Source: Gammaproteobacteria bacterium
GTDB taxonomy: Bacteria; Pseudomonadota; Gammaproteobacteria; Thiohalomonadales; Thiohalomonadaceae
DNA length: 61,698 nt
Reading direction: 5' to 3'
NCBI GenBank assembly: GCA_015231435.1
Contig: JADGBN010000002.1
Location: 1-61,698 of the forward strand
The notes under the pieces were generated by a model that was given only the letters and a program-made list of their open reading frames with translations, made no database searches and was not told the DNA's origin. How positions within the stretch are numbered: the stretch's first letter is position 1; each line of letters begins with the position of its first letter. The position numbers were made by a program, and so were the translations under genes. Of this stretch, positions 3,949 to 48,460 are shown in pieces.

Positions 3949-6900
3949 ATGCCACAAAAACCCATTACCAAGCGACCGATAAACCTTCGCCATCTGTTAT
4001 TAATCGTAACGGTAACCGTTCTTTTTTCTGTTGCTGCAGCGCTACTTATCATAAAAAAATATGATGACGACATCGCTTTTGTCGCACAGGAGATCACTGC
4101 CCTCGACCAGATAAATAGCCTCTTTATCGACATCCCCCGCATTCAGGACTGCCGCAGCTACCGCCAGCGCCGCCTTGCCGGTCTCGCTGTTCCCACCGGG
4201 TGGTGTACGCAGATGCATCAAACGCTCAGGGGGCGCTTTGGCGACAAAATCAGGGTGCTAACACCTAAGCTTGCCGATCAATTACGCTATGTCCGTGACA
4301 ATCTTGATGCGCTCTTTATCGAAGCGGATGATCTCGACCAGCCGCTACGTCAGTTTGCTGCCTACAACCATCAGATTGAAGTGCTGATAAAACTGATTCG
4401 GGATATTGCTGACCACGGCAATCTGACCTTTGATAGCACCGTTGACAGCCACTATCTGGCAAGAGTGTTGGTACATTCGCTGCCTGATATTTCAGAAAGT
4501 ATCGCTACCCTCAGGGGGCTCTTGACCTACGCATTTACCGGTGCGCCACAAATGGCGCGGGTAGCCCCGCTCATCCGGCAACAGATTGAACGGTTCCATC
4601 TCCATATTATCGATTATGACCGCTCCATTTATGTGCTGAGTCAGCAGGCCGACCCGGTGACGGTTAATATCGTCCGTCAGTTTGATCTCTGGCTGACCCA
4701 TACCAACAGCTATCTTGAACGCGTCACCACAACGCTTGATAACCAAACTATCGACAGTGAAATTGACAATTCGCTGTTTCTTGATGCCACCGCCGTACTG
4801 GATGAGTTTGACAGCAACCGCCAAATCATTAACAGTCGCCTTAACTCACTGTTAGACGAACGCAAAAAAGATCTCCTCCATGATCGCAATTTAGTCATCC
4901 TCCTGACACTCTTTGCGGTGATCTTTCTGCAGGCACTCTTCTACTGGTTCTATCGCCATATCCGACGCATCTTTAACTCACTGGAGAACACCCAGCAACG
5001 CTTGGTGTTAAGCGAATCACGTCACCAATCAACTTTTCATGCGGTTGTTGACGGCATTGTCATTATTAATGAGTACGGCATTATCGTTGATGCCAACCCG
5101 GCGACAAGCAAACTTTTTGGTTTTCCCCTTAAGGAGATAGTCGGGCGTAATGTCTCGATACTGATGCCATCCCCCTACAAGGAGGAGCACGATGGTTATC
5201 TCGCACACTATCGCAACGGCCAGTCGGCACGCATTATCGGTATCGGGCGTGAGGTGACAGGGCAGCGTAAAGATGGCTCTATTTTTCCAATGGTGCTCTC
5301 CGTCAGCGAATTTCACAGTGAGGGGCAGCGTTACTTTACCGGGTTGGTACACGACATCACGGCGCAAAAAGCCGCTGTTGATGAGATCCTCAATGCCCAT
5401 CACCAGCTCGAGACCAGGGTCGAGGAGCGGACAACAGAACTCAGTCAAGCTAACCAAGAGCTGCACGAACTCATTATCGAACGTAACCGCAGTGTCGATC
5501 AACTTCGCCTCTTTGCCAAGGTTTTTGAAAATGCTGGCGAGGCGATCATTATTACTGATGCGAATCAACGTATTCTCAATGCCAATGCCACCTTTAGCAA
5601 AATTACCGGCTACAGCCGCGCCGAGGCATTGGGGCTGCACCCGAAAAACTTCAGTTCAGGACGTCACGATGCACTCTTCTATCAAAAAATGTGGCAGCAG
5701 ATTAATAGCCAGGGCTTCTGGCAGGGCGAGGTTTGGGATAAACGCAAAAATGGTGAAATTTACCCCAAGCGGTTGAGCATTAACGTTGTTAATGACGAGA
5801 AGGGTAAAGTGACCCACTATGTCGGCATCTTTAGCGACATTACCATTCTTAAAAGTACCGAGGAGCAGCTGCAGAACCTTGCCTACTGCGACCCGCTGAC
5901 TGAGCTCAACAACCGCACGATGTTCCACATTTTGCTAAATAACACCTACGAAAGTGCGCGTCGTGAAAAGAGCCGTTTCGCCCTGCTCTTTATCGACCTT
6001 GACCGCTTCAAAATGGTCAACGATACCCTTGGCCACACCATGGGCGACCAGCTGCTAGTTATCATCGCCAAACGGCTGCGGCAGTGTCTGCGTAAAAGTG
6101 ACACCATCTCGCGCATCGGTGGTGATGAGTTTACCGCTATCCTGCCAAACATCCACCGCACCGATCAGGTGGCTGATGTGGCACTCAAAATTATTAACGA
6201 AGTCTCGCAACCCGTACTGCTCAACGATAACGAGGTGAATGTCGGCTCCAGCATCGGCATTAGCATCTTCCCTGATGACGGTGAAGATATCGAAACCCTG
6301 ACCAAACATGCTGATATCGCCATGTATAAGGTAAAAGAGAGCGGCCGCAACAGCTTCCGTTTTTTTGACGCCTCAATGAATGATGAGTCGGTGCAGCGCA
6401 TGCGCATGGAGCGCAAACTCCGATACGCACTTGAAAATAACCAGTTTTCCCTCTTCTATCAGGCCAAGGTTGATGCCAACAGCAACATCATTACCGGTGC
6501 CGAGGCGCTGCTGCGCTGGATTGATGAAGAGGATGGTTTTATTCCTCCCGACCGCTTTATCCCCGTTGCTGAGGATAGCGGCCTGATTCTGCCGCTGGGT
6601 GAGTGGGTTATTCGTGATGCCTGTCGGCAACTGCAACTCTGGAACAACAGCGGGCTGCACACCCCGCCGCTGCAGATAGCCGTCAACCTCTCCCCTTTAC
6701 AGTTCCAGCAACCCTCCCTATGTGAAACCGTGGCTGCAATTATGCAGGAGTACGAGACCGCCAAAGGGACGCTCTGCATTGAGGTCACCGAGAGTATGAT
6801 TCTCTACGACATTAACAAAGTCATCGCGATTCTTAATGACTTCCGTAATATGGGGGTACAGATCTCCCTCGATGACTTTGGCACCGGTTACTCCTCCCTT

Positions 6901-7185
6901 GCTCACCTTAAGCGCCTGCCGCTTGACCATATTAAGATAGACCGCTCCTTCGTTCGCGATATAGAGAGCGATAGTGATGATGCTGCCATTGTCGCGGCGA
7001 TCATCTCGATGAGCCACCGCCTCGGCCTGAAAGTGATTGCCGAAGGGGTAGAGAGTAAAGAGCAGCTTAACTACCTGCGCGAACTTCACTGCGATCAGAT
7101 TCAGGGTTACTACATTAGCCGTCCCCTCCCCGCACACCAGTTTGCAGAGTTCGTCTACAACGCCGAGCACCCGCCCAGCGAGTGA
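3949..7185 (+). CDS. Membrane sensor, diguanylate cyclase/phosphodiesterase (TM - helical sensor domain - TM - PAS - PAS - GGDEF - EAL)
   Basis: 1078-aa ORF with two hydrophobic segments bracketing a ~300-aa helical region. GGDEF is intact (SRIGGDEF) with an RKSD I-site 5 aa upstream. EAL motifs EALLRW and DDFGTGYSSL are present. Confidence 0.85.
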   Translation: MPQKPITKRPINLRHLLLIVTVTVLFSVAAALLIIKKYDDDIAFVAQEITALDQINSLFIDIPRIQDCRSYRQRRLAGLAVPTGWCTQMHQTLRGRFGDKIRVLTPKLADQLRYVRDNLDALFIEADDLDQPLRQFAAYNHQIEVLIKLIRDIADHGNLTFDSTVDSHYLARVLVHSLPDISESIATLRGLLTYAFTGAPQMARVAPLIRQQIERFHLHIIDYDRSIYVLSQQADPVTVNIVRQFDLWLTHTNSYLERVTTTLDNQTIDSEIDNSLFLDATAVLDEFDSNRQIINSRLNSLLDERKKDLLHDRNLVILLTLFAVIFLQALFYWFYRHIRRIFNSLENTQQRLVLSESRHQSTFHAVVDGIVIINEYGIIVDANPATSKLFGFPLKEIVGRNVSILMPSPYKEEHDGYLAHYRNGQSARIIGIGREVTGQRKDGSIFPMVLSVSEFHSEGQRYFTGLVHDITAQKAAVDEILNAHHQLETRVEERTTELSQANQELHELIIERNRSVDQLRLFAKVFENAGEAIIITDANQRILNANATFSKITGYSRAEALGLHPKNFSSGRHDALFYQKMWQQINSQGFWQGEVWDKRKNGEIYPKRLSINVVNDEKGKVTHYVGIFSDITILKSTEEQLQNLAYCDPLTELNNRTMFHILLNNTYESARREKSRFALLFIDLDRFKMVNDTLGHTMGDQLLVIIAKRLRQCLRKSDTISRIGGDEFTAILPNIHRTDQVADVALKIINEVSQPVLLNDNEVNVGSSIGISIFPDDGEDIETLTKHADIAMYKVKESGRNSFRFFDASMNDESVQRMRMERKLRYALENNQFSLFYQAKVDANSNIITGAEALLRWIDEEDGFIPPDRFIPVAEDSGLILPLGEWVIRDACRQLQLWNNSGLHTPPLQIAVNLSPLQFQQPSLCETVAAIMQEYETAKGTLCIEVTESMILYDINKVIAILNDFRNMGVQISLDDFGTGYSSLAHLKRLPLDHIKIDRSFVRDIESDSDDAAIVAAIISMSHRLGLKVIAEGVESKEQLNYLRELHCDQIQGYYISRPLPAHQFAEFVYNAEHPPSE

Positions 7186-7198
7186 GAGAAAAGAGAAT

Positions 7199-8341
7199 AT
7201 GACGACCATTATGATTAGCGCCGGAGAGGCATCCGGTGATCAACATGGCGCCCTGTTAGTGCGTGAGGCGCTAAAACTAAACCCCGAACTCACCTTTTTT
7301 GGTATGGGCGGGGCAGAGATGCGGACGGCTGGGGTTGAGACCCTTGTCGATGCGGCCGATATGGCGGTGGTCGGTTTTGTCGAGGTACTGCTACGCTATC
7401 GCCAACTGGCGGCGGTACTAGAAAAAATGCGGCAACTGTTGCAGCAGCGGCGTCCCGATCTGCTCATTCTTGTTGACTACCCCGATTTCAATCTGCGCCT
7501 CGCGGCAACGGCCAAAGCAGCAGGCATTAAAGTGCTGCACTATATCAGCCCCCAGGTCTGGGCGTGGCGGCGCGGACGGGTCAAAATGATTGGCGATCGC
7601 GTTGACCACATGGCGGTACTCTTCCCCTTTGAGGTACCTATCTACCAAACGGCGGGAATTCCCGTCACCTTTATTGGTCACTCACTGGTTGATGAGGTGG
7701 GCTCCCCCCTTAGCGAAGCGGCGGCAAAAAGCCGCTTTGGGGTTAATGATGCCACCGCAGTGGTTGGACTTTTCCCCGGCAGTCGGCGCAGTGAAATTAA
7801 GGCATTACTCCCCCTGCTGCTGGAGAGTGCGCGACAAATTGCCAAAAGCGCACCCCATACCGCTTTTCTGCTGCCCCTCGCCTCAACCCTCAACGATAGC
7901 GATATCGCCCTAATCAAAGCCTATCCCGATCTGCGTCTTAAGGTGATTCGCGGCGAACTCTACCCCCTCATGCGCGCCTCTGATGTCGTCGTGACCGCCT
8001 CGGGAACCGTCACCCTTGAGCTTGCGCTCATGGAGGTGCCGCTAATAGTTATCTACCGCGTCGCGGCGCTGAGCTATTTTTTCATGTCGCGTCTTATTCA
8101 GGTTGACCATATCGCCCTGTGCAACATTGTCGCCGAGCAGCGTATCGCTCCCGAGCTCATTCAACAGGAGGCGTCGGTCGCCAATATTACCCGCCATCTG
8201 CAACAGCTGTTAAACGATCCGCAGGGACGTCAAACCATGCGTAACGCCCTAAAAACCGTCCGCCAGCGCCTCGGTTCAGGTGGTGCCGCGAAACGCATTG
8301 CCGCCCTCACCGTCGCCATGGCCGACAATCAGCCGCTTTAA
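7199..8341 (+). CDS. lpxB: Lipid-A-disaccharide synthase
   Basis: MTTIMISAGEASGDQHGALL... matches the LpxB N-terminal pattern. 380 aa from ATG 7199. The track ORF start at 7142 overlaps the upstream gene and is not needed. Confidence 0.85.
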   Translation: MTTIMISAGEASGDQHGALLVREALKLNPELTFFGMGGAEMRTAGVETLVDAADMAVVGFVEVLLRYRQLAAVLEKMRQLLQQRRPDLLILVDYPDFNLRLAATAKAAGIKVLHYISPQVWAWRRGRVKMIGDRVDHMAVLFPFEVPIYQTAGIPVTFIGHSLVDEVGSPLSEAAAKSRFGVNDATAVVGLFPGSRRSEIKALLPLLLESARQIAKSAPHTAFLLPLASTLNDSDIALIKAYPDLRLKVIRGELYPLMRASDVVVTASGTVTLELALMEVPLIVIYRVAALSYFFMSRLIQVDHIALCNIVAEQRIAPELIQQEASVANITRHLQQLLNDPQGRQTMRNALKTVRQRLGSGGAAKRIAALTVAMADNQPL

Positions 8342-15072: not shown

Positions 15073-15114
15073 TTGATACACGTCAATGAAGCTACAGGGG
15101 TTTTCCCATGTAAT
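15073..15114 (+). promoter_or_regulatory. FNR/DNR/NNR-type box (TTGATACACGTCAA) plus candidate -10 (TGTAAT) upstream of norC
   Basis: TTGAT-N4-GTCAA at 15073-15086 has one mismatch to TTGAT-N4-ATCAA. A TGTAAT hexamer at 15109-15114 places the box centre about 41 nt upstream of a predicted start site, which is class II geometry. Confidence 0.55.
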
Positions 15115-17974: not shown

Positions 17975-18769
17975 ATGTCAAATAGCAATAAGCTCCCCTA
18001 CTACCATCCCCAGGGAAATGAGTGCGAACTCTTTACCCATGCCTACCACGCGCGTTTGCCGCTGTTGGTCAAAGGGCCTACCGGATGCGGCAAGACCCGC
18101 TTTATTAACTACATGGCAGCAAAGCTCGGACGCCCCCTGCACACCGTCTCCTGCCATGATGACCTGACCGCAGCCGATCTCGTCGGACGCCATTTGATTA
18201 ATGACCACGGCACCTTCTGGAGTGACGGCCCTCTCACCCGCGCCGTGCGCGAAGGGGCGATCTGCTACCTTGATGAGGTGGTTGAGGCGCGCAAAGATAC
18301 CACGGTCGTACTGCATCCGCTTACCGATGATCGACGCATTCTCCCCCTTGAGCGAACCGGCGAACTCCTCACCGCACCCCCCGAATTTATGTTGGTGGTC
18401 TCCTATAACCCGGGGTATCAAAATCTCCTTAAAGGGTTAAAACCAAGTACGCGGCAACGCTTTGTCGCCATTCGTTTTAACTTTCCCGCCGCCGCCGTTG
18501 AAATTGAGATCCTTACCAAAGAGACCGGTGTTGAAACCGCTCTGGCACAGCGCCTCGTCAACCTTGCCAACGCACTGCGCTCCCTGAAGGATCACGACCT
18601 CGAAGAGGCCGCCTCAACCCGCCTTCTGGTCTATACCGCCAACCTAATTCTTAGCGGCTACGCCCCCATAGAGGCGTGTCGCGCCGCCATGGTAGAGCCG
18701 CTAACCGATGATCAGGAGACCATTGACGCCCTCATGGAGGTGGTCGATATCACCTTTGGCAAAGGGTAG
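17975..18769 (+). CDS. norQ: MoxR-class AAA+ ATPase of the CbbQ/NirQ/NorQ family
   Basis: 264 aa. YYHPQGNECELF...GPTGCGKTRF (Walker A)...ICYLDEVVEA (Walker B). Located directly after norCBE. Confidence 0.85.
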   Translation: MSNSNKLPYYHPQGNECELFTHAYHARLPLLVKGPTGCGKTRFINYMAAKLGRPLHTVSCHDDLTAADLVGRHLINDHGTFWSDGPLTRAVREGAICYLDEVVEARKDTTVVLHPLTDDRRILPLERTGELLTAPPEFMLVVSYNPGYQNLLKGLKPSTRQRFVAIRFNFPAAAVEIEILTKETGVETALAQRLVNLANALRSLKDHDLEEAASTRLLVYTANLILSGYAPIEACRAAMVEPLTDDQETIDALMEVVDITFGKG

Positions 18770-18914
18770 GTTTAACGTCAACAGGCCGCCTTTAGCAACA
18801 ATGCAGGAAGGCCAAAGAAGTAGATTGATGGTGATAACTAATTTTACTCGTCCCATTTTCACATCTTATCCAATAAATCATCCTCCGAAGGCCGAAAGGC
18901 GACTGAACCATGCC

Positions 18915-18944
18915 TTGACAGACCTCTTGGTCGAAGTGCATAAT
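18915..18944 (+). promoter_or_regulatory. Candidate sigma70 promoter for the islet operon
   Basis: TTGACA (18915-18920), 18-nt spacer, CATAAT (18939-18944), about 110 nt upstream of the 19056 start. Confidence 0.4.
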
Positions 18945-19055
18945 TTGCTGTTGTCAGTTTATTGCCTATCCATAACTAAGTCCTATCGCGCCTAGATTAT
19001 GTCTGGCTTGTAATACGAATTTCTTATCAATCTAAATATAAGGTTTCTTCGCATA

Positions 19056-22040
19056 ATGGCGCGAAACAATGACACGACTGGGCAGGATGTTCCCAGCAAA
19101 AAAACACCTCGCGTACGTAAACCTAAATCAGTTATACGTGACGCTGAACAGTCTGAATTCTTCAAGGGTTACGTTGTTGCGATAGGTGCATCCGCTGGCG
19201 GTTTAGATGCGCTAGAGCGCTTCTTTGACGAACTCGCCATCGACTCTGGCGCGGTCATCGTGGTTGTTCAACATCTTTCTCCCGATCACAAAAGCATGAT
19301 GGACAATCTGCTTTCACGGCATACAACGATGCCCGTGCTGATGGCAGAAAACGGATTGGAGATGCAAGCCAATCATGTTTATCTGATTCCTCCCGGGAAA
19401 AACATGACTGTGGCTGGATCGCAGTTGCGTCTGGCACCCAAGAATCCTCACGGTTTGAGCCTGCCCATCGATCTCTTCTTTACTTCTCTTTCCAAAGAAT
19501 TCGGCAACCGCTGCGTGGGGGTAATCCTATCTGGCACTGGATCTGATGGAACGCGCGGCGCGGTAGCAATCAACGACGCAGGTGGATTTCTACTTGCTCA
19601 AGATCCGGAATCCGCCAAATTTGACGGTATGCCTCGTAGCGTCATCGGCACAGGCTTGGTTGATGAAGTTCTTCCTCCTAAATTGTTAGCGACTCGCATC
19701 GTCAGTCACGTCAAAAACGTGTTGGAAGTTTCAGCGAAGGTCAAAGAGAGTGAACTAACTGATTTGTATGTCAATCCAATGGAGAGCATCTTGCATTTGC
19801 TCTATCAGGTTGGCGGCATTAATTTCAAAGAATACAAACCCGCTACGGTGCAACGCCGCATCGAGCGGCGCATGCAGATTCGACATGTGCGCGATCTCAC
19901 CAATTATTTGCATTTATTAGAAAGTGATCGAGGCGAGATTCTGACATTGAAGCGTGACACACTGATTCCAGTGACCAGTTTCTTCCGTGATGCTGAAACA
20001 TTTGATCTGATGGAAAAGAATGTCATTCCTGCAATTATTTCAGAGCATCAAGAACAACAATCTATTCGCGTCTGGGTGGCAGGCTGTTCGACGGGGGAAG
20101 AGGCTTACACCATTGCAATATTGTTTGCTGAAGCGTTCGATCAACTTAAGCGCTGGCCCCAATTAAAAATTTTTGCGACGGACGTTGAGCAAACACATAT
20201 TGATATCGCCAGCGCGGGTGTGTATTCGGAAGCGATTGCCAATGAATTGTCGCCTGAGCGTTTGGAGCGTTTCTTTAAGCACAGTGGCAATCAATTCATT
20301 GTTAAAAACGAGATACGCCAAAACATCGTTTTTGCGCGCCACAATATTCTTGAAGACCCACCTTTCACGCGCATGAATCTTGTTACATGTCGCAATGTGC
20401 TTATTTATTTTGACGTCAACGCACAAGAGAAAGCACTACTTCGTTTTCAATATGCCTTGGTGCATAACGGCTATATGCTGCTGGGTTCAAGTGAATCATT
20501 GGGCGCGAGACATCGTGATTTCAGTGTTTCTGATAGTAAGAACAAAATCTATCGCGTTTTGCGTCCCGTTTCATTGCCACTTGATTTGAATCGAGGCTCA
20601 CAAGGCCGTGCTGCAACACGCAAAGTTACGATTCCCTCACAACGCGATCGCCATTTAAGCGTTGAAGCATCCGTCATTGAATCGGGCCAAAATATCTTAA
20701 TGAAGAACTATGCGCCCCCCGCACTGCTAGTGAATGAAGAGCGGCAACTGGTTCATGTGTTCGGTGATGCACAACGCTTTATGCAGATGCCTACTGGAAC
20801 GGCCAGTTTAGAGGTATCTAAATTGCTGGTAGGTAAATTATCGCCTGTAGGTATCGCTCTGATTCACAAAGCTGGCAAAGAGAATGTGCAGTTGCGCTCA
20901 GAAGTAATTGTGACTGATCCCGGTAAGGGAATTACAGAGCATGTTCGAATGACGGTACGCCCCGTACCTGTTAAGAGTGGAGGTGGAGAGAGATTCTTCC
21001 TTTTATCGTTTGATACCGAGTTTATGGCCGAGCCAAACCGCACTGGTAGTGAGGTAATAGATGTATCGGAAATTTCTAACGAGCGCATCCAAAACTTGGA
21101 ACGTGAGTTGTCTGCGATGCGAGACAGCTTACAAGCGACTATTGAGGAGTTGGAAACCTCTAATGAAGAACTGCAAGCGACCAATGAAGAATTGATGGCC
21201 TCCAACGAAGAGTTGCAAAGTACCAATGAAGAGTTGCAATCTGTGAATGAGGAGTTGTATACCGTCAATGCTGAGAATCAGGAAAAGATAGAAATACTAA
21301 ATCGACTGAACGCTGATCTCGACAACATGACAAGAGCAGCGTTAATCCCCACCGTTTTTGTCGATGAAAATCTCAAATTGACACGCTTCACTCCTGAGGC
21401 CGCAAATATTTTCCGTTTTCGTGAGGGGGATTTGGGACGTCGTATAGACGACTTTACTAATGTAATGGATTACCCCGAATTCATTTCTGATATTCGCCGT
21501 ACCTTAGGCACTGCCCAGGTGATCGAGCGCGAGGTGAAATCACAAACGGGTGATATTTGGTACTTGGTTCGTATTCTACCTTACATTGATAAACCTAAAA
21601 ATATCAGCGGCGCAGTGATGACATTCTTCGACATCTCTATGTTAAAAGACGTGCAGCGTTTGCAAGGAATCATGGACTCATTACCAGAACATATCGCCGT
21701 GCTAGATGCAGCAGGATATATCACTTTGATCAACAAAGCATGGCGAGACTTTGCAGAAGAAAATGGTGATAAAGGCTTAGTGTTTAGTGGGATTGGGTGC
21801 AACTATCTTGAAGCTATCCTTAAAGAAAAAGAATTGGATCAAATAGCGAATGAGGCGAACGAAGGCATTCGTAAAGTATTGGATAAAACACTTCCTGATT
21901 ATTCGATTAAATATCCGTGTCATTCTAAGGATGAGAATCGTTGGTTCTTGATGCACGTAGCACCTGTGCCGAACGTTGCAGGAGGCGTTGTTGTTAGTCA
22001 TATCAACATCACCCATTGGATCGAGGGTGTTCAGCAATGA
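19056..22040 (+). CDS. CheB-methylesterase/CheR-methyltransferase fusion protein with a NEEL-heptad coiled coil and C-terminal PAS domains (no kinase, no receiver)
   Basis: 994 aa. CheB motifs [31 protein letters not shown]. CheR SAM motif [19 protein letters not shown]. Coiled coil [38 protein letters not shown], followed by two PAS-like regions. Confidence 0.85.
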
Positions 22041-25000
22041 ACGATGAGTCAAAAAAGTCAAAATCCTTTCAGATCGAGGCCGCTGATATTAAAACAGCAG
22101 CATTAAAAGCCCTCCGCAATGGCGATTTCGATTTTGCGTTAAGGGCAGTAGAGCGCGGTGAAGCTAACATTACTGAGATGGTAGAAGACCTGAAAATATA
22201 TCAGGCTGAACTTGAAATGCAGAATGAAGAGCTTAGGCAATCTCAAGTTAGAAGTGAAATTGCTGTTGAAAGGTTTTCAAAGTTATTTTCATTGCTTCCC
22301 ATGCCTGCTTTGGTCATCACTGAAATTGGAGTGATAGTAGAGTGTAACGATTTAGCTGAACAAAGTTTCAAGCTAGATCGCGTCGTTCTTGCTAATCATT
22401 ATTTTCCAAGACTTATTAAGAATCAGGAGCATCATCGGCTACAGCGTGCCATTGCGCAGGCCAAAGATACTGGTACAAGTGCTATTGTCGAAGTAGGAAT
22501 GCAGGCTGCAGACAGCTCTGTTTTTATAGCAAACCTAAATTTCTCCCGTATTCCCAGTCCAGATTCTGACCAGGCACTTTTTACAGTTGTGGTCGTTGAC
22601 TTAACACAAGTACTCGAACAGAAAGCAAAGATCGAGGCAAGTCGTCGACATTTCATGGCTTACTTTGAGTTTTCCCCTGTTGGAATGGCGACAACCAGTT
22701 TGAAAAAAGGCTGGATCGAAGTCAACGATAAGCTGTGCGAAATGCTGTTGTATCGCCGCAAGGAATTGGTGCGCATGACTTGGCTAGAGTTGACCCATCC
22801 TGATGATATCGAAGCTGATTCGCTATTGTATGCCAGGGTATTAGCTAAAGAGATTGATGGCTATGAGGTAGATAAACGTTTTATACGGAAAGATGGTTCT
22901 GTTGTTGAAACGCATGTGGCAACCCAGTGTGTTCGTAACTATGCTGGCGAAGCTGATTATTTTGTAGCAATTATTGAAGAGATTGGAGATCGTAAACAGT
23001 TAGAGCGAGAGCGTGAAAATTCAATAATGAGCAAAGGTGCATTATTAGATCTTAAATTTCATGCAGATGAATTAAACGATGAAGATTTTCTAAGGCACGC
23101 CTTAGATCAATTAGAGTTATTGACCAGCAGCCAAATGGCTTATGCTCACTTTGTAAACGATGATCAAGAAAGCATCACATTAGGTGCATGGTCGAGCCAA
23201 ACACTCAAACACTGCAATGCAACTCACGATAATCATTACCCGATATCTAAGGCTGGCATTTGGGCAGATTGTTTTCGTGAAAAGAAATGGGTTATTCATA
23301 ACAACTACCCATCTGCTCCTCACAAAAAAGGATTGCCTGAAGGTCACGCCCAATTGTTGCGTCACATGAGTTTACCTGTAATGCAGGGCAATAATGTAGT
23401 AATGATCATTGGGGTAGGTAATAAATCCTCAGACTATGATGCCGGTGATCTGGCGCTATTGGAAATGCTGGCGAATAACTGCTGGGCCTTATTGCAGCGA
23501 AATCGAAGCCAGCGTAGGTTGGAGTTGGATGCAGAGGTATTCCGCATCAGTCGCGAAGCGGTCATTATCACCGATAAGAGTGGCAATATTCAGTCTGTGA
23601 ATAAGGCATTCACATTAATTACCGGCTACACTGAGTTGGAATCAATAGGGCAAACTCCTCGCCTACTAAAGTCGGGTAAGCAGTCTGCTGAGTTCTATAG
23701 AAAAATGTGGGCTGAAATCAACTCTTCTGGGCATTGGCAGGGTGAATTATGGAATAAGCGCAAGAATGGCGATCTCTATCCGCAATGGCTTGGAATCACC
23801 GCATCTAAGAGCAGTTCGGGTGAAGTAACAGAATACATCGGCATCTTTATGGACATCAGTGAGCATAAAATTGCACAACAGAAAATTGAAGAACTTGCCT
23901 ATTACGATTCACTGACGGCATTAGCAAATCGGACTTTATTAATCGATCGTGCGCACCGCGCCATCTCCCTAGCATCTCGCGAGAATCAAATGGTCGGCGT
24001 CTTGTATTTGGATTTAGACCGATTTAAAGATATCAATGATAGTCTTGGTCATAAGGTGGGTGATGATTTGCTCATGCAGGTCGCCAAGCGCTTATTGGCA
24101 TGTGTACGTGATACCGACACTGTCAGCCGATTAGGTGGCGATGAATTTGTTGTGCTTTTGAGTCAAGTGAATAGTATTGAAAACGTTTCTGAAGTTTCGC
24201 TAAAAATTCTCAAGACACTATCGGACCCATTCGTAATCAATAACAATTCACTTACTGTCACTTGCAGTATTGGAGCGTGCGTATATCCAAATGACAGTGC
24301 AGACTTCGACATATTGCTACAACGTGCAGATACGGCGATGTATCAGGCAAAAGAGCTCGGGAAGAACAATTGCCAATTTTTTACGGAGGAAATGAACCAT
24401 CGAGTTCAGAAGCGTATTCAACTCCAGCATGATATGAGGTCAGCCCTGCACAAGAAGGAGTTTTACCTAGAGTATCAACCTCAATTTGAATTAGATAATC
24501 ATAAGATTATAGGTGTTGAAGCGCTTGTTCGTTGGAAACATCCAACCCTTGGCATTGTATCCCCTGCCGAATTTATTCCTGTTGCCGAAGAATCGGGATT
24601 TATTATTGAGATTGGCCACTTTGTAATGCAACAAGCCTGCCGCCAAGCAAAATTCTGGCTCGACCAAGGATATGAACTGCAGATAGCTGTCAACGTTTCG
24701 TATGTACAGTTTGTAAGAAATAACTTGGTCCAATTGATTAAAGAGACTTTGCGCGATACTGGATTATCTCACAGGTTTCTAGAATTGGAATTGACTGAAT
24801 CAATACTGGTTTCTGACCCCGATAATGTATTGTCTGTGGTTAACACACTCCGTCAAATGGGGGTATTTCTTTCTATTGATGATTTTGGCACTGGGTATTC
24901 CAGTCTAAGCTATTTGAAACGATTCGACGTACACAAACTTAAGATAGACCAATCTTTTGTACGCGACCTTCTGATTGACCCAGATGATGCCATTATCGTG

Positions 25001-25180
25001 TCCGCCATAATTAATTTAGCAAGAAGCTTGAAAATCGATTGTATTGCTGAGGGGGTTGAAACTGAGGAGCAGGCAATTAAATTGAAAGAGATGGGTTGTA
25101 ATCAAATTCAGGGATACTGGCTAGGTAGACCACTTTCAGTTTCAAAAATGGGTGAGTTGCTCGCTCAGCTTCAGAACTAG
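22037..25180 (+). CDS. PAS-PAS-GAF-PAS-GGDEF-EAL signalling protein
   Basis: ATG at 22037 overlaps the upstream TGA (ATGA). YQAELEMQNEELRQ coiled coil, a GAF-like region, SRLGGDEF with an RDTD I-site, and EALVRW plus DDFGTGYSSL. Confidence 0.85.
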   Translation: MNDESKKSKSFQIEAADIKTAALKALRNGDFDFALRAVERGEANITEMVEDLKIYQAELEMQNEELRQSQVRSEIAVERFSKLFSLLPMPALVITEIGVIVECNDLAEQSFKLDRVVLANHYFPRLIKNQEHHRLQRAIAQAKDTGTSAIVEVGMQAADSSVFIANLNFSRIPSPDSDQALFTVVVVDLTQVLEQKAKIEASRRHFMAYFEFSPVGMATTSLKKGWIEVNDKLCEMLLYRRKELVRMTWLELTHPDDIEADSLLYARVLAKEIDGYEVDKRFIRKDGSVVETHVATQCVRNYAGEADYFVAIIEEIGDRKQLERERENSIMSKGALLDLKFHADELNDEDFLRHALDQLELLTSSQMAYAHFVNDDQESITLGAWSSQTLKHCNATHDNHYPISKAGIWADCFREKKWVIHNNYPSAPHKKGLPEGHAQLLRHMSLPVMQGNNVVMIIGVGNKSSDYDAGDLALLEMLANNCWALLQRNRSQRRLELDAEVFRISREAVIITDKSGNIQSVNKAFTLITGYTELESIGQTPRLLKSGKQSAEFYRKMWAEINSSGHWQGELWNKRKNGDLYPQWLGITASKSSSGEVTEYIGIFMDISEHKIAQQKIEELAYYDSLTALANRTLLIDRAHRAISLASRENQMVGVLYLDLDRFKDINDSLGHKVGDDLLMQVAKRLLACVRDTDTVSRLGGDEFVVLLSQVNSIENVSEVSLKILKTLSDPFVINNNSLTVTCSIGACVYPNDSADFDILLQRADTAMYQAKELGKNNCQFFTEEMNHRVQKRIQLQHDMRSALHKKEFYLEYQPQFELDNHKIIGVEALVRWKHPTLGIVSPAEFIPVAEESGFIIEIGHFVMQQACRQAKFWLDQGYELQIAVNVSYVQFVRNNLVQLIKETLRDTGLSHRFLELELTESILVSDPDNVLSVVNTLRQMGVFLSIDDFGTGYSSLSYLKRFDVHKLKIDQSFVRDLLIDPDDAIIVSAIINLARSLKIDCIAEGVETEEQAIKLKEMGCNQIQGYWLGRPLSVSKMGELLAQLQN

Positions 25181-25227
25181 ATATTGTATTTGATTGGTAT
25201 GTTGGTAATCTAGCCGCGTTAATACGT

Positions 25228-25782
25228 ATGACTATGAATATGGCAGATAGAGTTGAATTCAATCTGAATGAACAAAATATAATCGTTTCTGTGGGGGGCG
25301 AGTGGGATCAGTTCGCATTAGCGAACAACGCCCCCGAACTTGTTGGCGAACAAGTGATTGGTCTTTCCGTACTCGACTTTGTTAGTGGCAATGTGACTCG
25401 TCAGTTTCTTCAATCATTATTGCAATTAGTTCGTTCAGGTAGTAGACCGATTGAACTTGAATACAGATGCGATTCGCCGCTGGAGAAACGCTTTATGAAG
25501 ATGCATGTCTCGTTAACATTATCTGGGCAGGTGCGTTTTATCAATTCAACTCTTCGTATTGAACATCGAGACCAAGCGTGCCACATTTCAAAATCAGTTC
25601 AGCGCGGTAAAAACACAAATATTCGTTGCAGTATTTGCAACTTGATAAAGTCTTCGCATGATTGGCTTGAGCCAGAAAAAATATCAGCATTCAATACACA
25701 GGCCCATACTGGATTGCAAGTGGTATATGGTATTTGCGATTCGTGCGCTCAGCAATTGCAAAAGCAATATTTAACACAATGA
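25228..25782 (+). CDS. Hypothetical protein: PAS-like N-terminal half plus C-terminal Cys4 motif
   Basis: 184 aa. N-terminus resembles a PAS fold (IIVSVGGEWDQFALANNAPELVGEQVIGLSVLDFV). C-terminus has CSIC...CDSC. Same low-G+C composition as the upstream gene. Confidence 0.55.
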   Translation: MTMNMADRVEFNLNEQNIIVSVGGEWDQFALANNAPELVGEQVIGLSVLDFVSGNVTRQFLQSLLQLVRSGSRPIELEYRCDSPLEKRFMKMHVSLTLSGQVRFINSTLRIEHRDQACHISKSVQRGKNTNIRCSICNLIKSSHDWLEPEKISAFNTQAHTGLQVVYGICDSCAQQLQKQYLTQ

Positions 25783-25819
25783 ATACGTAGTTATTGAGTC
25801 CCGTACGTTTATTAAACAT

Positions 25820-25886
25820 AAACCCAGAGCATGGGTTTACGGCGTCCCGGCAAGCGGGTGGTGGGTTCTTAGACTTAACTTAAAGG
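25820..25886. repeat. Half copy (right arm) of the REP-like nested palindrome found at 38008-38139
   Basis: The 34 nt ATGGGTTTACGGCGTCCCGGCAAGCGGGTGGTGG at 25831-25864 are identical to 38082-38115. The flanking AAACCCAGAGC and AACTTAAAGG resemble the AAGCCCCCAGG and AACTTAATGG of the full copy. Confidence 0.8.
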
Positions 25887-25906
25887 TGATCTCACTCGTG
25901 CTGAGG

Positions 25907-26356
25907 CTACTGCGTACGGTAACTACGGTGGCAGGTGATGCAGGTTGCGGTCACGGCCTGCAATGAGGCGAGAGCCTTCGTAGTCTCTCCACTGCTGGCA
26001 ACTTTGGCGAACTCACTGCTTGCAGCGTGCATCATGCGTGCGATAGCGTGCATATCAGTAGGCATGAAGGCGCCGGGACGTGCATTTTGTGGTGCATTGC
26101 GATGGCTCCCCATGGCAGAGATGCCCATCTGCTTTTCGGCGATGTCAGCGGCATTAGTGAATTGTTGTTCAGCCAGCGCCCCGATAATCAAATGCAGCGC
26201 CGTCTGGAAACCGAGCATTTCGGTACGCAGCGCGGCACGCGCTTCAGGAGGCATCTCAACCAACTGACGACTATCGGTATCGGCAGCGCAAACCGGCACC
26301 GACCATATGGCAGTCAGCGCAACAAGAAATATCGGCAGAGCAAGTGGGTTTTTCAT
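25907..26356 (-). CDS. Class II c-type cytochrome (cytochrome c'/c556-like)
   Basis: About 149 aa from ATG 26356, preceded by an AAGG RBS. Has a signal peptide, helical content, and a single C-terminal heme motif (LQAVTATCITCHRSYR), as in cytochrome c'. Confidence 0.6.
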   Translation of the reverse strand: MKNPLALPIFLVALTAIWSVPVCAADTDSRQLVEMPPEARAALRTEMLGFQTALHLIIGALAEQQFTNAADIAEKQMGISAMGSHRNAPQNARPGAFMPTDMHAIARMMHAASSEFAKVASSGETTKALASLQAVTATCITCHRSYRTQ

Positions 26357-26508
26357 GACTGAACCTTTCAATTACTGGGAGGGGGCGACTAAGATCTGCA
26401 TCTGATACGAGACAGCATCATAAGATATCCAACGAAAAAAGTCACCGGCGTTGCGCGGCATTATCGCACAGCATCCGTGTGGACTGTTTGGTTGGGCATC
26501 ATAGCTGG

Positions 26509-26601
26509 GTAACCGTTCACTCCCCTTCCTTAAGTCTCCCTCTCCCAGCGGGAGAGGCTGGGGTGAGGTCTAAAAAGGCAGCAGGAGAGTGAACGGTTAC
26601 G
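26509..26601. repeat. Palindromic intergenic element
   Basis: 14-bp perfect outer arms GTAACCGTTCACTC / GAGTGAACGGTTAC enclose an inner hairpin CTCTCCC-agc-GGGAGAG followed by GCTGGGGTGAGG. Confidence 0.6.
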
Positions 26602-34210: not shown

Positions 34211-35618
34211 CCTTAGCGACCACCTAACAGCCTATCTACGCTGTCAACGCGACTGGTATCAGATCGCCATCAGTTCGCTGCGTATATTTATCGCCGTGCT
34301 GCGCAGCAGCCAGCTTAACCTCTACGCCAGCAGTCTTGTCTACGCAACCCTCATGGCACTGGTGCCGCTTATTGCGGTCAGCTTTTCGACCCTAAAAGGA
34401 CTCGGGGCACACCACCATCTTGAGCCGATACTGCTGGCAGTTCTTGAACCCCTAGGCCCCGCCTCTGCGGAGCTTGTCAAATATCTGCTCTCCTTCGTCA
34501 ATAATATGCAACTGAAGGTGCTCGGCTCAGTCGGCCTCGCGGTACTGATCTACACCATTATCACCCTCACCATGAAGGTCGAGGCGGCGTTTAACTATAT
34601 CTGGCAAGTCAGTACCCCGCGCACTCTGGCACGGCGTTTTAGCGACTATCTGAGCGTTATTCTGATAGGGCCGGTACTGATTATCAGCGCCCTTGGCATT
34701 ACTGCTTCGATCTCTCGCGAGAGTGTAGTGCAGCTGCTGTTAAATATCGAACCGATGGGGTCGCTGCTGCTGTTACTTGGCAAACTGCTGCCGTTTCTTC
34801 TGGTCATTAGCGTCTTCACCTTTATTAACAGCTTCGTCCCCAACACTCCGGTTAACTTTCGGGCGGCGCTGGTCGGTGGTGTTGTCGCCGGCACCATCTG
34901 GCAGAGCTTTGGTCTGTTATTCACCCACTTTATTGTCGGCGCCAATACCCAGACAGCCATCTACTCAAGTTTTGCGATTCTCTTTTTCTTTATGATTTGG
35001 CTCCACCTCGGCTGGTTGACGCTGCTCTTTAGCGCCCAGGTGAGTTTTTACGCGCAAAACCCCCATCATCTACTCCCCGAGGAGAGGGGGATGATTCTCA
35101 GCCACCAGCAGCGCAGTGAGCTAAGCATCACCCTGCTGTTAATTATTCTTGACCACTACTACCTCAACAACCGCCCCCTAAGCCGCAATGAACTGAATGC
35201 CTACAGTCAACTACCGGCAAAAATTGAGGAGGAGATTTTAACCAGTCTGGAGAGAATGGGCTTTCTTACCTGCACCCAGGAGAGTGAACTACTCATTCCC
35301 GCCAGTGATCCACAACAGCTAACGCTCAATACCATTACTCGGCGACTTAACGAATTTGTCCCGCACCCACCCGGTGAGGTTCAAGGGAGCGCATCGCAGA
35401 GCAACCTGCGCCCCACCGATAAATACCAGATGGCGGCGCTGCAACTTTTTGACCGCCAACAGTACGCCAGCGAACGCGAATTGGGCGAAGAGAGTATTTA
35501 TGATCTCATACAGAACCAGCTACAACAGGATTTTGCCCTAAATCACGACACCCTAAAGGCAACGCCCGCAACTACCCTGGTTGTCAGTTCAGGCAATACC
35601 GCGACGACGACAGATTAA
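34197..35618 (+). CDS. yihY: YihY/BrkB-family inner membrane protein with a ~170-aa C-terminal cytoplasmic extension
   Basis: 473 aa. N-terminal YASSLVYATLMALVPLIAV-type YihY core with about 6 TM segments, then a soluble tail. Confidence 0.7.
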   Translation: MFQANLSDHLTAYLRCQRDWYQIAISSLRIFIAVLRSSQLNLYASSLVYATLMALVPLIAVSFSTLKGLGAHHHLEPILLAVLEPLGPASAELVKYLLSFVNNMQLKVLGSVGLAVLIYTIITLTMKVEAAFNYIWQVSTPRTLARRFSDYLSVILIGPVLIISALGITASISRESVVQLLLNIEPMGSLLLLLGKLLPFLLVISVFTFINSFVPNTPVNFRAALVGGVVAGTIWQSFGLLFTHFIVGANTQTAIYSSFAILFFFMIWLHLGWLTLLFSAQVSFYAQNPHHLLPEERGMILSHQQRSELSITLLLIILDHYYLNNRPLSRNELNAYSQLPAKIEEEILTSLERMGFLTCTQESELLIPASDPQQLTLNTITRRLNEFVPHPPGEVQGSASQSNLRPTDKYQMAALQLFDRQQYASERELGEESIYDLIQNQLQQDFALNHDTLKATPATTLVVSSGNTATTTD

Positions 35619-36385
35619 CGAATAATCCCGCGTGTCGTCTGTTCCAGTGCTGCATAAAAGAGCGCGACTTCCGGTGAGTCCGCCGCCGCCGCCTTTATCT
35701 GCTCCTTCGCTTCACTAAAAGAGAGCCCAGCACGATAGAGCAGCCGGTAAGCAGCGAGGATCTGCTGCATCGTCGCGGCAGAGAAGCCGCGCCGTTTTAG
35801 CCCTTCACGGTTAATCCCGTGGGGTGCGGCGGGACTTCCTGAAACCATTAAGTAGGGGGGAACATCTTTGCTTATCGCGCTTCCCATACCGGCAAAGGCG
35901 TGATCGCCAATCGAACAGAACTGATGTACCAGGGTAAAACCACTTAATATCACCTGACTCCCGACGCGAACATGGCCAGCAAGCGAGGCGTTATTGGAAA
36001 AAATCGTGCGATCCGCGATATGGCAATCGTGAGCGACATGCACATAGGCCATGAGCAGATTATCGTTGCCAATAGTGGTCACACCACCACCACCGACGGT
36101 ACCGCGACTGAGCGTCACCCCTTCGCGAATCGTGTTGCGATCGCCAATCTCCAGACGTGTCGGCTCGCCATGATATTTAAGATCCTGCGGACGTTCACCC
36201 ACCGAGGCAAACTGAAAAATTCGGTTCTCTTTGCCAATGCGGGTCGGGCCGTTAATCACCACATGCGGGCCAATAACGCTCCCTTCACCAATCTCGACAT
36301 CGGCACCGATAACGGTATAGGGGCCAACCTCTACCCCTGCGGCAATTTTTGCTGAGCTGTCAATAATCGCAGTGGCATGAATCAT
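35615..36385 (-). CDS. lpxA: Acyl-ACP:UDP-N-acetylglucosamine O-acyltransferase
   Basis: From ATG 36385: [27 protein letters not shown], hexapeptide repeats, and a C-terminus ...TRGIIR like E. coli LpxA. The start shares one nt with the upstream TGA. Confidence 0.9.
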   Translation of the reverse strand: MIHATAIIDSSAKIAAGVEVGPYTVIGADVEIGEGSVIGPHVVINGPTRIGKENRIFQFASVGERPQDLKYHGEPTRLEIGDRNTIREGVTLSRGTVGGGGVTTIGNDNLLMAYVHVAHDCHIADRTIFSNNASLAGHVRVGSQVILSGFTLVHQFCSIGDHAFAGMGSAISKDVPPYLMVSGSPAAPHGINREGLKRRGFSAATMQQILAAYRLLYRAGLSFSEAKEQIKAAAADSPEVALFYAALEQTTRGIIR

Positions 36386-36888
36386 CACTGCACCCGTTGC
36401 TCGGCGCACATCAGATCGGCACTGGCGACCACTTTACCCGCCACTGAGGCAACGCCGGTAAATTTCCAAATACCGCGCTTCTCTTTCACCACGGCGACCT
36501 CCAATAACAGCTGATCGCCGGGAATTACCGGCTGCTTAAAACGGCAGTTATCAATACCGGCAAAAAAATAGAGCTTGTCATGCGCCGGGCGCGCTCCACT
36601 GCTTTTAAAGGCAAGAATGCCGGTTGCCTGCGCCAATGCCTCCATAATCAGTACCCCGGGGAAGATCGGGCGACCGGGGAAGTGACCGGGGAAAAAGGGC
36701 TCATTGACCGTGATGTTTTTAAGCGCGGTCAGTTTCACCCCAGGTTCACAGGAGAGCACCCGATCAACCAACAAAAATGGGAAGCGGTGTGGCAGGTAGT
36801 TGAGGATCTCCTGAATATCCATACTGTGATTAATGGGGCTGGGAATTGCGGTTGTCTGGCTGCTGGCAGGTTCACTCTCTTCGCTCAC
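36385..36888 (-). CDS. fabZ: FabZ module; independent initiation is possible at GTG 36888 (RBS AGGAGA 8 nt upstream) or ATG 36822
   Basis: The minus strand reads AGGAGAGGCGACCCGTG inside the linker, in frame with FabZ. ATG 36822 gives a canonical 145-aa FabZ. Confidence 0.55.
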
Positions 36889-37974
36889 GGGTCGCCTCTC
36901 CTGATGGTTGACTGAATGGTTGTTCGATGAAGGGGATGGGGATAAAGGGGCTGGGGATTGCAGCGTGCGTTCAAGCGCGCTTAAACGCCGCGCCATCGCG
37001 TCAAGCTGGGTGTAGCGAACCGCGTTGCGCTGGGCACTGCGTTTGCTCTCCAGCGGCAGCGCTGTGCTATAGATCCCGGGTTGTTCAATCGATTGCGTCA
37101 CCAGTGACATCGCCGTCACCGTCACGCCGTCAGCTATCGTCAGATGCCCCAAAATGCCCGCACCACCACCAATAGCGCAGTGAGCGCCGATTTTCGCGCT
37201 ACCGGCAATACCGACACAACCGGCGATAGCCGTATGGTCACCAATTTTCACGTTATGGGCGACCTGAATCTGGTTATCGAGCTTCACCCCGTGACCAATC
37301 AGAGTGTTCTCCATCGCGCCACGGTCAATGGTGGTATTGGCGCCAATTTCGACATCATCACCAATCACTACCCCACCAAGCTGATGAATTTTCACCCAGC
37401 GACCCGCGTCATTGGCAAAACCAAAACCATCGGCACCCAGCACCGCGCCAGAGTGAATAATGGCCCGTTCCCCAATAGTGACATCATCATAAAGGGTTAC
37501 CCGCGCATAGAGGTGACTACCGCTACCAATGCGACAGTGCGCCCCAATCACGCAGTAATCCTCAATGACCACCCCCGCCCCGATGACCGTATCGGCCGCA
37601 ATCACTGCGGTTAACGCAATCACCGCATCAGAGGCGATTTGCGCAGAGCAGTCAATCATCTCGCTGCTAACCACCTGTCGCACCGCTGGCGCAAAGAGGC
37701 TGCTAACCTGCGCATAGGCAAGATAGGGGTGCAACACAACAATGGTAGCAACCGTGTCAGGAACAAAGGGGAGATCATCCTTACCAATAATGACCGCCGT
37801 CGCGCGGGTGGTGGTTAACTGCGGGCGTAATCGGGGGTGACTTAAAAAACTTAATTTGCCCGCGACGCCCGGCTGTAGTGGTGCCACCCCGGCAATCGCC
37901 AAATCACCCTCGCCACGCAGGGTACCGCCTAGATAGTCGGCAATCTGTTGCAGGGTGACGGGTGCGTTCACCAA
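36385..37974 (-). CDS. lpxD: Single reading frame encoding LpxD (UDP-3-O-acylglucosamine N-acyltransferase) fused through a Pro/Ser-rich linker to FabZ (3-hydroxyacyl-ACP dehydratase)
   Basis: 529-aa uninterrupted ORF. An LpxD-like ~340 aa runs to ...[13 protein letters not shown]. The linker is [45 protein letters not shown]. FabZ follows: [22 protein letters not shown]...[15 protein letters not shown]. Confidence 0.8.
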
Positions 37975-48327: not shown

Positions 48328-48460
48328 TAAGAATGGACTCCTGATTTAGTTGGGTTTAACCGCCAGACATCCCATCATCCAACCACGCAATAAAGGTGGC
48401 ACCCGGGTGATGTGTCGATACCTGTGTGAGTTTATCCCGCAGCAGCGCCACGGGGCGTGC

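Follow-up and report, generated by a model that had tools for sequence, protein, structure and literature searches.

The islet and its genes

Contig JADGBN010000002.1 of a gammaproteobacterium carries, directly behind the nitric oxide (NO) reductase gene norQ, a low-G+C islet of three genes, which is the subject of this work; the contig was analysed over its entire length of 61.7 kb, hereafter the window, and all comparisons of composition were made within it. The three genes encode a CheB-CheR-PAS fusion protein (gene 1), a PAS-GAF-PAS-GGDEF-EAL protein (gene 2) and a small protein with a predicted PAS fold (ORF3). They recur in other genomes as a conserved, mobile and uncharacterised signalling unit, which we call the cassette. 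The islet is in all likelihood a horizontal acquisition, and its genes probably act together on cyclic di-GMP (c-di-GMP). The locus is composed as follows (GC3, G+C content at third codon positions; aa, amino acids; ORF, open reading frame):

17975–18769, + strand: norQ, with AAA_5 and CbbQ_C domains, GC3 0.649; closes the native norCBEFQ set and borders the islet on the left
18770–18996, + strand: left AT-rich spacer, G+C 0.436, not common to the other cassette copies
18997–19055, + strand: conserved 5' leader of the cassette, AAGGTTTCTTCGCAT(A/C)ATGGCGCGA being invariant in six copies (alignment A2)
19056–22040, + strand: gene 1, 994 aa; Pfam CheB_methylest, CheR_N, CheR, PAS_10, PAS_4
21132–21257, + strand: run of 21-nt (7-aa) repeats within gene 1 (direct-repeat family D1 and its translation), matching EExxA(S/T)
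22037–25180, + strand: gene 2, 1047 aa; Pfam PAS (three times), GAF_2, PAS, GGDEF, EAL
25240–25782, + strand: ORF3, 180 aa; predicted divergent PAS fold and C-terminal CxxC...CxxC
25783–25906, no strand assigned: right junction spacer, G+C 0.476, between the convergent ORF3 and cytochrome c' genes
25907–26371, − strand: cytochrome c' family gene, Pfam Cytochrom_C_2, GC3 0.581; native right flank, convergent with the cassette

The domain assignments made for the islet genes in a preliminary description, which was drawn from the sequence alone, agree with Pfam, and all three ORFs are equal in length to their orthologues. In gene 1, the CheB domain (PF01339, E 2e-57) comes without a receiver (REC) domain, and its catalytic triad, consisting of S46, the histidine of 'VVVQH' and the aspartate of 'GTGSDG', aligns to S164/H190/D286 of 1A2O. 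CheR_N (PF03705, E 2e-14) and CheR (PF01739, E 1e-56) are also present; the CheR part matches the structures 5FTW and 1AF7 at E 1e-28 to 1e-35, with an intact S-adenosylmethionine motif. A heptad coiled coil (residues 675–760) stands ahead of PAS_10 (PF13596, E 3e-25, residues 755–860), behind which the protein ends in a further PAS domain, and Pfam detected no HisKA, HWE_HK or HATPase_c domain. The heptads EELQAT, EELMAS and EELQST begin at residues 704, 711 and 718, respectively. Strict EExx[AS][ST] heptads thus number three in gene 1, as compared with 0.10 ± 0.32 in shuffled sequences, and two to three of them occur in register in all 120 gene-1 homologues. The consensus Glu-Glu-x-x-Ala-Ser/Thr is what we take to be the methylation motif of chemoreceptors, i.e., methyl-accepting chemotaxis proteins (MCPs).

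The domain content first proposed for gene 2 stands, and its start is moved from the TTG at 22016 to the ATG at 22037, which overlaps the TGA of gene 1 as ATGA (22037–22040). The same 4-nt overlap between genes 1 and 2 is present in the contexts L094, L096, L097, L099 and L106 (sampled contexts are designated here by L numbers). The GGDEF domain (PF00990, E 8e-51) has the GGDEF motif together with an RxxD inhibitory site (RDTD, five residues, GGDEF), 'RDTDTVSRLGGDEF', and the EAL domain (PF00563, E 7e-69) has 'GVEALVRW', 'DDFGTGYSS', 'KIDQSF' and 'EGVET'; to judge from these motifs, both domains are apparently competent. All seven orthologues examined share the N-terminal helix of the protein, VEDLKIYQAELExQNEEL.

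The reading frame of ORF3 opens at 25228, and its start is most likely the codon at 25240, which gives a product of 180 aa like those of its homologues. Neither Pfam and NCBIfam models nor a sequence search of the PDB returned a match, and among family members matches to PAS_4 and PAS_9 remained below threshold (E 0.01–0.2). An AlphaFold2 model with a mean confidence (pLDDT) of 86.5 found PAS domains as all of its best Foldseek matches in the PDB, namely NPAS1/ARNT, photoactive yellow protein (PYP) and DOS, at E 2.5e-4 to 1e-3 and target template-modelling scores of 0.5–0.7. The N-terminal part is accordingly predicted with confidence to be a PAS fold. Cys77, Cys130, Cys133, Cys166 and Cys169 are invariant (alignment A1), and the pairs C130-x2-C133 and C166-x2-C169 are so in nine sequences; the C-terminal part is a putative structure of zinc-ribbon-like character. 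A PYP-like chromophore cysteine was considered as well and was rejected, since the conserved Cys of 'YRCDSP' falls on the G-beta/H-beta hairpin, off PYP Cys69, in an alignment made by eye with the PYP sequence. The preliminary description had called ORF3 an orphan. It has only eight close homologues, and a profile search (50% clustering) at E<=1e-3 collected 3,333 cluster representatives, while the stricter E<=1e-10 left 2,318. Their lengths are throughout about 170–210 aa, and ORF3 thus defines a widespread family for which Pfam and NCBIfam hold no model. Distant relatives, such as P0009, are solitary and lie in unrelated contexts.

Composition, copies and origin of the cassette

The islet differs strongly in composition from the DNA around it. 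Its G+C content is 0.435 (18770–25830) against 0.536 for the remaining contig, and in 1-kb windows the value is 0.54 at 18–19 kb, 0.41–0.46 at 19.5–25.5 kb and 0.50–0.58 by 26–27 kb; the G+C trough noticed earlier between norQ and about 25.83 kb is thus real and sharply bounded. GC3 amounts to 0.451, 0.400 and 0.378 in genes 1, 2 and 3, which corresponds to z-scores of −3.4, −4.7 and −5.2 relative to the 43 other ORFs (mean 0.588 ± 0.040, minimum 0.506). The tetranucleotide profile of the islet correlates with that of the remaining contig at r = 0.224, as against 0.876 ± 0.051 (minimum 0.748) for 82 other 7-kb windows. Among all copies of the cassette, that of the window is the lowest in GC3, and amelioration is therefore not evident.

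At least five other contexts contain the three genes as a group. On the 158-kb contig L081 they are arranged in the same order, and the protein identities to genes 1, 2 and 3 of the window are 87.5%, 80% and 67%, respectively. The same arrangement recurs with 90%, 80% and 69% in L093/L094/L095 and with 90.5%, 80% and 69% in L096, and the Methylococcales contigs L097/L098, from a metagenome-assembled genome, have the genes at 81%, 70% and 57%. The flanks differ from copy to copy, comprising an integrase and ArdA in L081, STAS, SpoIIE and SulP genes in L093, an HDOD gene in L096, and in L097 genes for pilT-like ATPases to one side of the cassette with nifHDK opposite. The island that contains the L081 copy has 0.43–0.48 G+C and also encodes ArdA and a tyrosine integrase; its end coincides exactly with a tRNA-Ser(GGA), and the host DNA past this point has 0.53–0.60 G+C. 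In L085, a fragment with an integrase arm-binding domain abuts an ORF3 homologue next to lepA. In L097, on the other hand, the cassette (0.44–0.46 G+C) matches its flanks (0.41–0.44). Gene 1 has relatives at 91%, 90% and 88% identity; those with a name belong to Methylococcales (81%), to Methylomonas, Methylotuvimicrobium and Methyloprofundus (68–71%) and to Methylotenera (70%), and Chromatiaceae contribute relatives at 55–58%. Low-G+C methylotrophs of the Methylococcales/Methylotenera type are, in our view, the compositional home of a cassette that elsewhere rides integrase-bearing islands; here, only the three cargo genes are present, directly downstream of norQ.

Such identities contrast with those of the host genes. 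The best relative of the host LigA, in a search of 5.8 billion proteins, reaches 65% identity, and the host lineage is, by this kind of measure, poorly sampled. NorQ has its best match at 82% in Sedimenticola or Thiodiazotropha (scan of 185,579 species genomes, 80 loci), and the cytochrome c' has its best at 69% (metagenome scan, 5 loci); none of the 80 NorQ loci has a cytochrome c' gene or ligA downstream, and the five cytochrome c' loci have no neighbours in common with the window. Because the outlying composition, the 91% identity of gene 1 as compared with a ceiling of 65% for LigA, the methylotroph relatives and the island of L081 all agree, we consider the islet to be horizontally acquired with a high degree of confidence. 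The foreign origin suggested in the preliminary description is thus well supported, and the cassette is met with in unrelated bacteria and at sites that have nothing in common. Taken by itself, the islet is an ordinary small horizontal acquisition, though a clean one.

DNA homology to the other copies, at 77–78% identity, starts at 18997–19040 and ends at about 25765–25782, which indicates that the imported unit consists of the three genes and a leader of about 60 nt. A 37-nt core of this leader keeps 94.6% identity even with L097, although identity drops to about 72% in the coding DNA of that copy. The ribosome-binding region and first codons of gene 1, AAGGTTTCTTCGCAT(A/C)ATGGCGCGA(A/G)ACAA, are nearly invariant (window 19033–19069; L097 7597–7633; L096 508–539 and 1525–1600), and L096 has a second copy of the leader motif upstream of its HDOD gene; the near-invariant leader may be a translational or regulatory element. 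The sigma70-like site TTGACA-N18-CATAAT reported earlier was found again by a promoter scan at 18915–18944, with 11 of 12 matches, and it lies inside the spacer that the copies do not share. A hairpin, AAACCCAgagcaTGGGTTT, was read directly from the sequence at about 25822–25840 in the right spacer. An Rfam scan of the islet returned no riboswitches or other RNA families.

The preliminary description also took the internal step in G+C as a sign that the islet is itself a mosaic; gene 1 and genes 2–3 would then have been acquired as separate pieces. The step exists, with 0.458 in gene 1, 0.423 in gene 2 and 0.413 in ORF3, but gene 1 exceeds gene 2 in every copy (0.466/0.454, 0.480/0.441, 0.482/0.453 and 0.456/0.440). 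In addition, the DNA homology to L094 and L096 is unbroken from about 19000 to about 25760, and genes 1 and 2 are joined by the ATGA overlap. As the G+C step and the order of identities (about 81–90%, 70–80% and 57–69% for genes 1, 2 and 3) recur in every copy, they are properties of the cassette and not the traces of separate acquisitions, and a mosaic origin is highly improbable.

Some observations count against an import. The G+C-normalised dinucleotide signature does not single out the islet (delta* 57.5 versus 38.6 ± 21.2, maximum 95.8), and its foreignness therefore resides mainly in base composition and third codon positions. The window was found to contain no tRNA, neither the integrase nor the ArdA of L081 has a homologue in it, and the repeats flanking the islet are chance-level 12-nt pairs only; thus, apart from its deviant composition, the window copy shows no integrase, attachment (att) target or flanking repeats as an integrative island would have, in line with the earlier account of three genes without mobility genes of their own. 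A search of 72,556 plasmids gave domain-level matches only, which cover <=3% of the query, and no ORF3 homologue. The nearest copies are only 77–78% identical in DNA, a value by which the donor is unsampled, and the databases have no close relative of the host with which the locus could be compared. Both the in-range dinucleotide signature and the lack of mobility genes and att sites in the window would suit native, vertically inherited genes with a composition that is odd for functional reasons, and so would a second PAS-PAS-GGDEF-EAL gene of native composition (3949–7185, + strand, 1078 aa, GC3 0.598), by which the host already owns c-di-GMP enzymes of such architecture. Against native genes stand the identity of gene 1, up to 91% where LigA does not exceed 65%, the different locus of the cassette in every genome sampled, and GC3 values that are 3.4–5.2 standard deviations low, all of which make vertical inheritance exceedingly improbable. 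We assign a similarly minute probability to a chimera of metagenome assembly, in which a low-G+C fragment of another organism would have been spliced into what is, after all, a single metagenomic contig: two precise intergenic junctions would be needed, with complete genes left on each side, and the independent assembly L081 has the same kind of low-G+C island within DNA of higher G+C.

The site of the islet is itself informative. In the nearest nor clusters, those of Sedimenticola, Thiodiazotropha and Sulfuricella, norQ is followed by genes for a Fer4_5 membrane protein and NorD, and 56 of the 66 loci with enough downstream sequence have a co-directional norD no more than 4 kb downstream of norQ, in some cases behind a Fer4_5 gene. 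Neither norD nor the Fer4_5 gene has left a trace on the 61.7-kb contig (best tblastn E 0.2). Since the islet occupies the place of norD, and norD is absent from the contig, the locus is probably a replacement or rearrangement junction and not a clean insertion, and the neutral insertion between two convergent gene ends that the preliminary description had offered finds no support. NorD, together with NorQ, is needed for the maturation of NO reductase. The NO reductase of the host may do without this maturation factor, unless norD is encoded outside the contig, and acquisition of the cassette may thus have cost or relocated a denitrification function.

By gene content, the contig is chromosomal core DNA, with rpsB-tsf-pyrH-frr-uppS-cdsA-dxr-rseP-bamA-skp-lpxD/fabZ-lpxA, smc-zipA-ligA, lpxB, purB and norCBEFQ, and it also encodes a 2-oxoacid:ferredoxin oxidoreductase. 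The lpx cluster is contiguous in most Gammaproteobacteria. Here, lpxB (7142–8341, + strand) and lpxD/fabZ/lpxA (35615–37974, − strand) lie about 27 kb apart in opposite orientation, with the nor genes, the islet, the cytochrome c' gene and ligA-zipA-smc between them, and this split suggests an inversion or rearrangement. A single 529-aa ORF (36385–37974, − strand) joins the N-terminal and hexapeptide domains of LpxD to a FabA/FabZ dehydratase domain, and is either an lpxD-fabZ gene fusion or the result of a lost stop codon or sequencing error. The gap between the cytochrome c' gene and ligA contains an 18-nt inverted repeat of 94% complementarity, GTAACCGTTCACTCCCCT ... AGGAGAGTGAACGGTTAC, with a 56-nt spacer (26509–26600), which resembles an element of the REP (repetitive extragenic palindromic) or MITE (miniature inverted-repeat transposable element) type. 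The sole Rfam match in the window is a t44 RNA upstream of rpsB (48354–48446, − strand, 56.5 bits).

Function proposed for the cassette

Gene 1 is directly followed by a GGDEF-EAL gene in nine of nine sampled contexts, mostly with the 4-nt overlap, and the pairing spans Gamma- and Betaproteobacteria, down to 57% identity in Thiocapsa, with further instances in Pseudohaliea and Methylotenera. An ORF3 homologue is linked with cheBR in seven contexts, downstream of it in the clade of the window and upstream in Methylotuvimicrobium buryatense and Methylotenera; as its position varies and it nevertheless stays linked, the linkage is independent of gene order. In M. buryatense (L099, 918–7334), the ORF3-like gene belongs to a larger signalling cluster: genes for a 1584-aa CHASE-PAS hybrid histidine kinase and an HD-domain response regulator come before it, and cheBR with its GGDEF-EAL partner follows closely. 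As gene 1 is constantly paired with a GGDEF-EAL gene and ORF3 is linked to cheBR, the three genes probably constitute one functional unit acting on c-di-GMP.

The location of the unit raises the question of its input. It had been suggested that the cassette is a module for sensing NO or redox state, integrated with the nor locus and tuning c-di-GMP during denitrification. It is co-directional with norCBEFQ, no terminator-like site was found on the + strand between norQ and gene 1, and a box of the FNR/Dnr/NnrR type, TTGATacacGTCAA, lies at 15073–15086, about 60 nt upstream of norC; read-through could therefore impose control by NO or anoxia on the cassette in this host, a step that we infer only. 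PAS and GAF domains, moreover, can bind haem. Yet nor and cytochrome c' genes occur in none of the ten other contexts sampled, which contain the cassette or its parts, the neighbours there being nifHDK, pilT-like, STAS, SulP, HDOD, CHASE kinase, mrp, mutS and phytochrome genes. A haem-binding signature was not identified, and the window holds four FNR boxes where 2.1 are expected, a number not above chance. The proposed functional tie to NO thus finds no support; the position beside NO genes looks incidental, and an NO-sensing role is quite improbable.

Light is another candidate input. A phytochrome of about 490 aa, composed of PAS_2-GAF-PHY and with no output domain, comes directly after the ORF3 homologue in three independent contexts, L081, L094 and L104, and a gene for haem oxygenase is next in L081 and L104 (coordinates of the phytochrome, with haem oxygenase where present: L081 10581–12714; L094 7424–8896; L104 2832–4893). 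Between L081 and L094, the phytochrome shows 82% identity. This arrangement hints that ORF3 could be a signalling partner of the output-less phytochrome. The three genes might then provide the output of a pathway for red/far-red light and would normally work with the adjacent bacteriophytochrome and haem oxygenase; the window copy would be a truncated remnant without its photoreceptor. The window, however, has no phytochrome, and the three genes are not followed by one in L097/L098, L099 or L105; in Thiocapsa and Pseudohaliea, moreover, cheBR and its GGDEF-EAL gene are paired in the absence of both phytochrome and ORF3. A dedicated light pathway is therefore an unlikely general account of the cassette.

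We propose instead that the cassette is a methylation-based adaptation device. What is at hand for such a proposal is the gene linkage, the ATGA overlap, the intact catalytic motifs and the conserved heptads. CheB without its REC domain is more active, and that of gene 1 would likely be an unrestrained methylesterase, fused to its opponent, the CheR methyltransferase. Gene 2 would be translationally coupled to gene 1 through the overlap, and its N-terminal helix carries the same QNEEL motif as the gene-1 heptads. Signals sensed by the PAS domains would shift the balance of methylation and demethylation on the coiled coil of gene 1, on the helix of gene 2, or on both; this shift would in turn set the balance between synthase and phosphodiesterase in gene 2, and hence the level of c-di-GMP. 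The cassette would thereby act as a soluble adaptation device without MCP, CheA or CheW, with ORF3 serving as an accessory sensor or adaptor for the gene 1/gene 2 pair. What is methylated in this scheme, in which direction control runs and which signals are perceived is our inference.

Several facts speak against the scheme. The coiled coil of gene 1 has no homology to the MCP signalling domain according to Pfam (no PF00015 match), and its likeness to MCP methylation sites is at the level of the motif only. Helices of the NEEL type often precede PAS domains and may be no more than dimerisation helices. Furthermore, a search of the literature on CheB-CheR fusions, K13924 and PAS_10 yielded no functional or experimental study. 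That genes 1 and 2 are coupled by methylation of glutamates in the NEEL helices is a tentative idea, less likely than not. More doubtful still is the full version of the scheme, in which CheB-CheR would write and erase glutamate methyl esters on its own and the gene-2 NEEL helices without receptor or kinase, so that c-di-GMP signalling would gain a methylation memory like that of chemoreceptors, and in which ORF3 would found a family of PAS and zinc-ribbon adaptors that, in some genomes, plug in an output-less bacteriophytochrome. As an overall explanation of the islet, we nonetheless lean, with some reserve, towards an acquired and conserved three-gene cassette that works by a mechanism of the kind proposed. 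CheB-CheR-PAS fusions are annotated in thousands of genomes, and to our knowledge their substrate is not known; the coupled GGDEF-EAL partner and the conserved heptads of this clade offer a concrete and testable substrate hypothesis for them. All three genes are present in M. buryatense, a genetically tractable organism.

Comparison with known systems

With regard to mobility, the cassette resembles tRNA-linked integrative islands in its atypical composition and its accessory signalling cargo, and the L081 copy does lie in an island with integrase and ArdA at tRNA-Ser(GGA). The window copy differs from these in that it has no integrase, tRNA or direct repeats and a cargo of three genes only.

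With regard to its proteins, gene 1 has the domain order of the KEGG group K13924, 'two-component system, chemotaxis family, CheB/CheR fusion protein', namely CheB_methylest, CheR_N, CheR, coiled coil and PAS_10, and many of its homologues have been given a name of the K13924 type by JGI. Proteins of the K13924 type often carry a histidine kinase, whereas those of the gene-1 clade end in PAS domains without a kinase and have a GGDEF-EAL gene next to them in all nine contexts. The C-terminal PAS-GGDEF-EAL part of gene 2 is like that of DibA, of the PdeR(YciR)-like PRK10060 and of DosP, and it scores 664 bits against the NCBIfam model of DibA and 442 bits against PRK10060, in both cases below the equivalog cut-off (980 and 782 bits, respectively). 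Unlike DibA, PRK10060 and DosP, gene 2 has the N-terminal QNEEL helix, additional PAS domains, a GAF domain and an obligate cheBR partner.

As to light, phytochrome-GGDEF-EAL photoreceptors of the BphG1 type from Rhodobacter sphaeroides tie a bacteriophytochrome to c-di-GMP turnover (PMC8846402), and the phytochrome next to ORF3 in three cassette contexts recalls this association. In contrast to BphG1, the phytochrome of the cassette is a separate protein without an output domain, and it is absent from the window. In a census of sensory inputs to c-di-GMP published in 2022, mention of CheR and CheB is confined to complete chemosensory systems (PMC8846402).

Among known systems, Wsp of Pseudomonas comes nearest; it is made up of the MCP WspA, the CheR-like WspC, the CheB-like WspF, the CheA-like WspE and the GGDEF response regulator WspR. 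In both Wsp and the cassette, enzymes of the CheR and CheB type are genetically linked with a c-di-GMP synthase, and in Wsp the methylation state is thought to set the output of c-di-GMP. MCPsignal, CheW and CheA domains were found neither in the scanned ORFs of the window nor in the gene tables of L081, L093–L100, L105 and L106. The cassette thus departs from Wsp in having no MCP, CheA, CheW or receiver domain, with CheB and CheR fused in one soluble PAS protein, and its output is a dual GGDEF-EAL protein, which is linked to that fusion by gene overlap and not by phosphotransfer.

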